Sequence record: PQ666539
DNA from: Shigella phage sb1
Reading direction: 5' to 3' (one strand)
Length of the DNA: 64,000 nt
In this document: one piece after another, positions 47,349-48,767 of the stretch
Numbering within the stretch: position 1 is the stretch's first letter
How the letters are laid out: each line of letters begins with the position of its first letter
Notes under the pieces: model-generated
Told to the model about the DNA's origin: nothing
Seen by the model: the letters and a program-made list of their open reading frames with translations, nothing else
The model's database searches: none
Program-made: the position numbers and the translations under genes

Positions 47349-48767
47349 TTATGGATAGGTATAGATGATACCAGTTTCTAAAGCAGTTTTATGAATGATG
47401 TATCCATTGCGCGATTCTTGAACATCGACTTCTGGATAGTCTTTTATCATCTTCTGAAGAGTGTAACGATGCAAGTAATACTTAATATCTGGGTCGTCAG
47501 TTTTCCAATCTTTACCTTCTTCGGTCATTTTTTGGATTTCATCCATAACCCACCAACCGCACCAGATATAAGCCGAAGTACGATGTGGAAGAGGATGAAA
47601 ATAAGGCAATTCACCTTCTGGTTCCGGAGCAACTTTATCAGTTACCTGAACTTGGCCTGTTGCTTTAACTGTTTTACTATCATAGTCGGTTGCTGTAACG
47701 ACAGCAGTAACTTCAATAGTTTGACTTCCAATAGATGATGTATCAACGGTGTATACATTAGTTGACCCTTCTACAGGAGAAGAATCTTTCTTCCATGAAT
47801 AAGTAATTTGTGCTGCTTCAGGTGCTCCAGTAACATTAGCCGTAAATGTAGCCGAAGCATCTTGCTGAACGTTAATAGAAGGAGGAGTCAATGTAACCTG
47901 TGGATTCATTGTCTTCTTATTAACTGTCAATGATACTTCATTAGAAGTAACTTCCTTTTCATTGTAATTTTCTGCAGTTACTTGCGCTACACACTTAACT
48001 GTTTTAGCTCCAACTGTGGTAGGAGTATAGTTAAATGTAGTAGTAGTTTCTCCATCGACCAGAGAACCGTCAACATACCACTGATACGTAGCAGATGCCC
48101 CATCAGGTTGAGAAGCTAAGGCAGCAGTAAATTCAACGGCTGTTCCAATTACCCCGGCAGCAGGACTATCAGGAGTTACTGCCAAGGTAGTCGTCTGCGT
48201 CTTTTTATTAACTGTTAATGATACTTCATTAGAAGTAACTGTTTTTGCGTCATAATCTGCTGCTGTTACTTGGGCTACGCATTTGATTTTTTTTACTCCG
48301 CTTGTGTCAGGAGTGTAATTGAATGTAGCGTCAGTTGCTTCGTCTACAGGAGAACCGTCAACGTGCCATTGATACGTAGCGTTTGCACCTGATGGCTGTG
48401 AAGCTAAGGCAGCGGTAAATTCAATTGGAGTTCCAATCACTCCAGCATCAGGGCTACCAGGAGTTACAGCTAAAGTAGTTGTTTGTGTCTTATTTTGAAC
48501 TGTGATAGTTGTCGTAGTTTCTGCTGTTTCAGGTTCAGATTCTGGAACTGTATTTGTTGCAACTACTTTAATAGTCTTTTGACCTGCAGGTCCTTTTAGT
48601 ACATAGCTAAAAGTTGCTTCAGCTCCATCCTGTGGAACATTATCTACACTCCAAGCATAGGTAATAGTTCCACCTTCAGTTTGACCACTGGGTGTAGCAG
48701 TAAACTGCTTGGTTTCATCAATAACTCCTGTTGGGGTTTTAGGAGTTATATCAACTGTAAAAGTCAT
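47349..48767 (-). CDS. hoc: Hoc outer capsid protein with extra Ig-like domain
   Basis: MTFTVDITPKTPTGVIDETKQF... and C-terminal capsid-binding domain match T4 Hoc; 472 aa vs 376 in T4. Confidence 0.9.
   Translation of the reverse strand: MTFTVDITPKTPTGVIDETKQFTATPSGQTEGGTITYAWSVDNVPQDGAEATFSYVLKGPAGQKTIKVVATNTVPESEPETAETTTTITVQNKTQTTTLAVTPGSPDAGVIGTPIEFTAALASQPSGANATYQWHVDGSPVDEATDATFNYTPDTSGVKKIKCVAQVTAADYDAKTVTSNEVSLTVNKKTQTTTLAVTPDSPAAGVIGTAVEFTAALASQPDGASATYQWYVDGSLVDGETTTTFNYTPTTVGAKTVKCVAQVTAENYNEKEVTSNEVSLTVNKKTMNPQVTLTPPSINVQQDASATFTANVTGAPEAAQITYSWKKDSSPVEGSTNVYTVDTSSIGSQTIEVTAVVTATDYDSKTVKATGQVQVTDKVAPEPEGELPYFHPLPHRTSAYIWCGWWVMDEIQKMTEEGKDWKTDDPDIKYYLHRYTLQKMIKDYPEVDVQESRNGYIIHKTALETGIIYTYP
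47918..48493 (-). repeat. two tandem 288-bp copies (96 codons each) inside hoc
   Basis: near-identical stretches starting 47918 and 48206 (TATTAACTGT(C/T)AATGATACTTCATTAGAAGTAAC...). Confidence 0.75.

Follow-up and report, generated by a model that had tools for sequence, protein, structure and literature searches.

[quoted passage not shown] In group B Streptococcus, the alpha C and Rib surface proteins carry in-frame tandem repeats of one whole Ig-like domain, and homologous recombination among these alters copy number and fibre length. The Hoc protein of T4 is a 180-angstrom fibre in which a conserved capsid-binding domain supports three Ig-like domains, and Hoc homologues vary in how many Ig-like domains they have, reaching up to 10 (PMC10385173). 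That extreme is found in the Serratia phage Muldoon, a distant homologue which likewise has a length-variable Ig-like string on a conserved anchor (PMC10385173). The Hoc of phage PNJ-9, also a distant homologue with divergent domains, is encoded by a gene with about 65% nucleotide identity to T4 hoc, is without domain 3, and is reported to bind MUC2 and fucose through residues S183, L184, and T185 of its domain 2 (PMC11853027). Unlike the differences seen in Muldoon and PNJ-9, the variation that we describe here is found within one genus, concerns one domain type, and proceeds in steps of 288 nt.

The window that we analysed is a 64,000-nt stretch of Shigella phage sb1 (PQ666539). It carries an intact hoc open reading frame of 1419 nt on the minus strand, laid out with its immediate surroundings as follows:

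47349..48767, minus strand: hoc coding sequence, 472 aa plus stop, four Ig-like domains and the capsid-binding domain
48492..48767, minus strand: Ig-like domain 1 (aa 1-92), aligning with T4 Hoc 1-92
48204..48491, minus strand: repeat unit 1, an 'A-type' Ig-like domain 2 (aa 93-188), with an SLT motif at aa 183-185
47916..48203, minus strand: repeat unit 2, a chimeric Ig-like domain 2 (aa 189-284), with an SLT motif at aa 279-281
47634..47915, minus strand: Ig-like domain 3 (aa 285-378), aligning with T4 Hoc 189-282
47352..47633, minus strand: C-terminal capsid-binding domain (aa 379-472), near-identical to T4 Hoc 283-376
47321..47338, minus strand: terminator-like GC-rich hairpin and T-run, AAGGGGCTTCGGCCCCTT then TCTTCATTTT, 11 nt past the hoc stop codon
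48777-49457: inh, neighbour of hoc
from 49508: uvsW, neighbour beyond inh

Judged by its sequence, the product of 47349-48767 is Hoc, near-identical to T4 Hoc across all domains. A phmmer comparison with T4 Hoc (PDB 5vf3_Z, 376 aa; E 8.8e-254) aligned the two proteins in two stretches, query 1-189 with T4 1-189 and query 189-472 with T4 93-376, so that T4 domain 2 (residues 93-189) is matched by two query stretches and is used twice in the window Hoc. The gene is flanked by inh on one side and by the 24.3, 24.2, and rnlB genes on the other (in the window, a pair of small ORFs and the RNA ligase 2 gene), and the order uvsW, inh, hoc, 24.3, 24.2, rnlB is the same in the annotated genomes of Killian, HP3, UGKSEcP2, and T4. 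An earlier note on this DNA, made from the letters alone, had named the gene hoc, and both the alignment with T4 Hoc over all domains and the conserved gene order uphold that name. The window phage is a Tequatrovirus (T4-like coliphage), with Killian (97.0%), LF73P3 (96.8%), and UGKSEcP2 (96.6%) as its closest genomes over 20 kb; the nearest hoc is that of phage Killian, which is likewise 1419 nt long and 95.3% identical at the nucleotide level. We also observed that the gap between inh and uvsW in the window is only about 50 nt (49458-49507). A homing endonuclease gene lies beside inh in T4, ZCEC15, and ACG-C40 (segE in the T4 record, SegA in ACG-C40), and the window, Killian, HP3, and UGKSEcP2 are without one at this place.

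T4 and the window share the same gene, position, and domain types, with domains 1 and 3 and the capsid-binding domain about 90% identical in nucleotides. T4 Hoc has one domain-2 unit as opposed to two in the window, and neither window unit exceeds 82% nucleotide identity to that of T4. The difference in length between the window Hoc (472 aa) and T4 Hoc (376 aa), which the earlier note had given, is correct and equals exactly one 96-codon unit. Closer counterparts exist in, among others, Killian, HP3, ime09, PP01, and wV7, whose Hoc proteins, like that of the window, have 472 aa encoded by 1419 nt and two units with the A-type first. Such two-copy relatives, labelled 'Hoc-like head decoration' in RefSeq, are 91-95% identical to the window hoc in nucleotides but differ from it in the mosaic makeup of unit 2. 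The longer Hoc proteins of UGKSEcP1 and UGKSEcP2 (568 and 570 aa) and of slur14 (664 aa) contain the array and unit types of the window plus one or two more units. Repeats of the alpha C and Rib kind, by comparison, are usually near-identical in DNA, whereas identity between hoc units is 74-84% and their types can be recognised by array position.

Structure prediction supports the view that, relative to T4, the repeat contributes a further Ig-like domain in its entirety. Pfam matched PKD in two stretches of the window Hoc, together with Ig_3 and I-set, the latter two at aa 289-374 of domain 3. An AlphaFold model built with 34 homologues contained four beta-sandwich domains (aa 1-91, 93-187, 189-283, and 285-376) with pLDDT mostly above 90; in domain 1 the strands run from E4 to E91 with pLDDT 84-94, and domain 3 has pLDDT 88-94. 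The borders of the repeat units coincide with the NKK linkers that separate the modelled domains. Foldseek returned strings of four Ig domains as the best PDB matches of this model, namely the N-terminal four Ig domains of Dscam1 and D1-D4 of ICAM-5, and it also matched RB49 Hoc (3shs); global TM-scores were low, about 0.2, as expected since the domain string is flexible. The extra Ig-like domain proposed in the earlier note is thus supported by the doubled PKD match, the four modelled beta-sandwich domains, and the four-Ig strings alike. The capsid-binding domain was poorly modelled (pLDDT below 50), and we therefore base its assignment on sequence identity. The structure of this domain in T4 Hoc has been solved on the capsid (5vf3, 8t1x), and just 4 of the last 100 residues in the window Hoc deviate from the majority residue of 120 relatives.

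Tandem Repeats Finder reported a period of 288 with 2.1 copies, 77% matches, and a score of 699 at 47911-48503, and a repeat search paired 47911-48198 with 48199-48486 at 76% identity. The tandem 288-bp repeat placed at 47918-48493 in the earlier note is therefore real, being the same array with its phase shifted by 7 nt. The two units lie head-to-tail and in frame with no spacer, and the period of 288 nt corresponds to 96 codons and to one structural domain. A comparison of hoc with itself at an offset of 288 nt, a check which the earlier note had proposed, confirmed the repeat, giving identities of 0.67-0.90 per 30-nt block within it versus 0.17-0.50 elsewhere, well above background. The claim that the units are highly similar at the nucleotide level did not hold: they are identical at 220/288 nt (76.4%) and 74/96 aa, they differ at 68/288 positions (40 of the 68 being third codon positions), and the longest exact run common to both is 24 nt.

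The divergence between the units amounts to dN 0.145 and dS 0.99 (dN/dS 0.15), while dS between the window hoc and T4 hoc with the repeat excluded is 0.31-0.38, or about one third of the between-unit value. Near-identity of the copies at synonymous sites, the hallmark of a young duplication, is absent. Both units have close counterparts in other phages: unit 1 is 95.1-97.6% identical in nucleotides to the first units of the UGKSEcP2, HP3, and Killian arrays, and unit 2 is 96.9% identical to unit 2 of HP3 and 91.7% identical to unit 3 of UGKSEcP2. The same pattern is seen in proteins, where units parsed from fixed anchors in 117 Hoc cluster representatives had a mean amino acid identity of 0.88 between first units of different proteins and 0.79 between unit 1 and unit 2; that is, units at an equal array position across phages are more alike than units inside one protein. 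At the sequence level, these values indicate that the paralogous units are older than the diversity sampled within the genus, with purifying selection acting on both.

These measurements bear directly on the origin favoured in the earlier note, a recent and lineage-specific tandem duplication of domain 2 in the window phage. Such an event would explain why the units are adjacent, in frame, and plainly homologous, and the exact 472-aa window Hoc is indeed absent from a public collection of 15 billion proteins. We nevertheless regard it as highly improbable, given units that are only 76.4% identical with dS 0.99, same-position counterparts at 91-98% nucleotide identity in HP3, Killian, and UGKSEcP2, and a two-copy allele that occurs in about one third of sampled records, including the years-old deposits of wV7, ime09, and PP01. 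Divergence of the units at the nucleotide level was the very observation that the earlier note had named as contradicting it, and the 'recent' reading fails on that account. A comparison of Hoc length in relatives, also proposed there, bears out the extra domain and speaks against its being peculiar to the window phage.

Tandem repeats are also a classic source of misassembly, and a falsely expanded repeat has to be weighed for this locus, which was analysed here from its assembled sequence. With 68/288 differences between the units and exact runs of at most 24 nt, short reads would be placed unambiguously; moreover, the ORF is intact, and dozens of independent assemblies contain the same 1419-nt gene. 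An assembly artefact is accordingly a very unlikely source of the repeat, as the units can be told apart and the architecture recurs in many independent genomes. A local feature of unit 1 is a run of eight A residues at 48287-48294 (minus strand) in the GVKKIK codons, where relatives read TAAAAAAA. This site is prone to slippage or sequencing error, and in ACG-C40 a frameshift in the region splits the annotated hoc into two CDS.

The number of domain-2 units varies widely across Tequatrovirus, from one in T4 and two in the window to three in UGKSEcP2 and four in slur14. Matches to hoc were found in 656 phage records, many of them exactly 1419-1425 nt long, and two-copy carriers include Killian, HP3, ime09, PP01, wV7, and Sf21. 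Among the best 120 protein clusters, which were ranked by likeness to a two-copy query, Hoc has 376-379 aa in 81, 468-472 aa in 30, and 567-570 aa in 9. We also counted units with unit 1 as the query in 60 evenly spaced records out of 616, finding one unit in 36, two in 19, three in 3, and four in 2; the counts agreed with hoc length in 15/15 sampled records for which that length was known. The two-copy allele therefore occurs in about one third, and more than one domain-2 unit in about 40%, of the sampled Tequatrovirus records.

Unit number differs even between very close relatives. The three genomes nearest to the window phage over 20 kb have two units (Killian), one (LF73P3), and three (UGKSEcP2). 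Moreover, UGKSEcP2, LF73P3, and ZCEC15, with three, one, and one units respectively, are 100% identical over the 282-nt domain-1 part of hoc and 99.1-99.6% identical over the 567-nt part that encodes domain 3 and the C-terminus; the ZCEC15 flanks are 99.5-100% identical to those of the three-copy UGKSEcP2, yet ZCEC15 has a single unit. In contrast to the old units, copy number appears from these comparisons to shift recently and repeatedly. The largest array that we saw is that of slur14 (NC_028448.1, 1915-3909), whose 664-aa Hoc has four tandem domain-2 units with pairwise nucleotide identities of 74-84%, and MZ170040 (FJ1) likewise has four matches to the unit query. The 567-aa Hoc of CCU7 (PV806175.1, 1501-3204) has a distinct five-Ig architecture outside the 288-nt array series, in which one domain-2-like unit precedes two Ig-like domains that have diverged much further and a domain 3 that is also divergent, while the conserved capsid-binding domain is shared with the other Hoc proteins.

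The composition of individual units was resolved by painting, in which each unit was matched against the three units (u1-u3) of UGKSEcP2 as a single reference array. The segments were as follows, with mismatches in brackets:

Window unit 1: u1 nt 1-209 (2), then u2 nt 210-288 (3)
Window unit 2: u2 nt 1-131 (5), then u3 nt 132-288 (3)
ZCEC15 single unit: u1 nt 1-122 (1), u2 nt 123-172 (0), then u3 nt 173-288 (0)
Killian unit 1: u1 nt 1-227 (2), then u2 nt 228-288 (0)
Killian unit 2: u3 (2)
teqhad single unit: u1 nt 1-218 (2), then u3 nt 219-288 (1)
LF73P3 single unit: u1 nt 1-34 (0), u3 nt 35-219 (3), then u2 nt 220-288 (1)

The two window units were thus painted from UGKSEcP2 with 13 mismatches in 576 nt. 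By the maximum chi-squared method, window unit 2 has a breakpoint between unit positions 108 and 132, a value that 0/2000 permutations reached, and breakpoints were likewise supported for the ZCEC15 unit and for window unit 1. The crossover in unit 2 is located within one short interval:

48073..48095, minus strand: crossover interval in unit 2 (unit positions 109-131), between the last u2-like and the first u3-like informative site

Every junction is in register, the chimeras being window unit 2, ZCEC15, Killian unit 1, teqhad, LF73P3, and HP3. Such in-register junctions are characteristic of a tandem array that undergoes unequal homologous recombination and gene conversion. Unit 2 itself is of pure C type in Killian, C/B'/C in HP3, and B'/C in the window. 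Some breakpoints sit in present-day identity tracts of just 11-23 nt, which is short for homologous recombination, and the tracts in the true parents may have been longer. The 5 and 3 mismatches in the two parts of window unit 2 place its actual parents outside the sampled alleles. A discrete A/B/C typing of units by their middle motif was dropped, as many different mosaic combinations occur within that middle region too. A rule confining A-type sequence to the first unit of multi-copy arrays was true in the 120 protein clusters and is not general, since the single units of teqhad and ACG-C40 are A/C chimeras.

We hypothesize that the domain-2 array of hoc is a mosaic locus of old unit types whose copy number is altered by in-register unequal homologous recombination, and we consider this very probable. 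The unit types would be old and each retained by purifying selection, while the number of units would change often through unequal recombination between units, either within one genome or between co-infecting phages. As the period spans a whole domain together with the linker, crossovers that stay in register always leave an intact chimeric domain and an intact ORF. The window allele, with an A-type unit followed by one that runs from middle-unit (B') sequence in its 5' part into last-unit (C) sequence in its 3' part, is what a three-unit array would yield if units 2 and 3 underwent a single unequal crossover of 288 nt, and the reciprocal direction, in which two-unit parents would give a three-unit product, is equally possible.

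A quieter history is also conceivable, in which the window carries an old and stable two-unit allele that was inherited or swapped whole from a co-infecting Tequatrovirus, with its mosaic reflecting short gene-conversion patches. T-even phages recombine freely, hoc alleles are independent of the genomic backbone (the nearest genomes having one, two, and three units), and the window hoc is 3-5% diverged from every compared relative. Moreover, unit 2 of HP3 has the same 131/132 junction as window unit 2, so that the event probably predates the window phage. Such a history is compatible with the recombining array, however, and merely shifts the crossover to an earlier ancestor, and ZCEC15, Killian, and teqhad, with their perfect chimeras, show that unit number does change on short timescales. 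We hold it to be somewhat unlikely, though well within reach. Whichever ancestor the crossover belongs to, the window hoc is an ordinary new allele of a common class.

The window fibre would have four Ig-like domains rather than three on an unchanged anchor at the centre of each gp23 hexamer. It is reasonable to infer that it is longer than the T4 fibre by about one Ig domain (roughly 40-45 angstroms), or about one quarter. We also infer that the domain-2 surface is displayed twice, including the SLT motif, which begins at aa 183 and at aa 279. As PNJ-9 Hoc is divergent, carry-over of its SLT binding site to the window Hoc is a weak lead. Each unit is net acidic, with 10 D+E versus 5-6 K+R, which is consistent with the link between the acidic character of Hoc and virion dispersion (PMC10385173). 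The extra unit could change how far the fibre reaches, or how avidly it binds mucin glycans or the surfaces of bacteria. More tentatively, the domain-2 array might act as a fast-switching dial of length and avidity, the number of units being adaptive in the manner of a contingency locus rather than subject to neutral drift, a proposal that we consider doubtful. If it is true, populations would keep generating variants of one to four units, among which mucus type, host surface, and aggregation conditions would select.

The two-copy Hoc architecture is already known, having been deposited often and annotated as Hoc. Our full-text literature search returned no account of the 288-nt domain-2 series of one to four units or of its chimeras in Tequatrovirus, although older Hoc papers might mention them; what it did return was the general variation of Ig-like domain number among Hoc homologues (PMC10385173) and the Hoc without domain 3 (PMC11853027). 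What is new here is modest: the exact window allele, with the genus-wide recombining array as a by-product. Between close relatives, Hoc can differ by anything from one to three whole Ig-like domains, so that comparisons of adhesion among 'T4-like' phages by percent identity alone miss a large structural variable. Natural arrays of one to four units, some of them in nearly isogenic phages (such as UGKSEcP2, ZCEC15, and LF73P3), amount to a ready-made experiment that could inform the effects of fibre length and valency on mucin binding, aggregation, and immunogenicity.

Several minor observations concern the rest of the gene and the records compared with it. In the capsid-binding domain, the window Hoc has F390 and I428 (codons 47598-47600 and 47484-47486) where 120/120 relatives have V and S; F390 corresponds to V294 of T4, whose two neighbours, Tyr293 and His295, contact the capsid (PMC10385173). 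Either genuine substitutions or errors of sequencing may account for F390 and I428. At the end of domain 1, a 6-nt indel at about 48531-48539 (hoc codons 77-79) separates the allele SEPETAE of the window, Killian, HP3, and T4 from the allele SEAEPETAE of UGKSEcP2, LF73P3, and ZCEC15. Finally, the taxonomy lines of HP3 (NC_041919.1) and OZ035759.1 read 'Rosemountvirus' and 'Mosigvirus mar005p1', while their hoc regions are typical Tequatrovirus two-copy alleles with 89-94% identity to the window, and both records are probably mislabelled.
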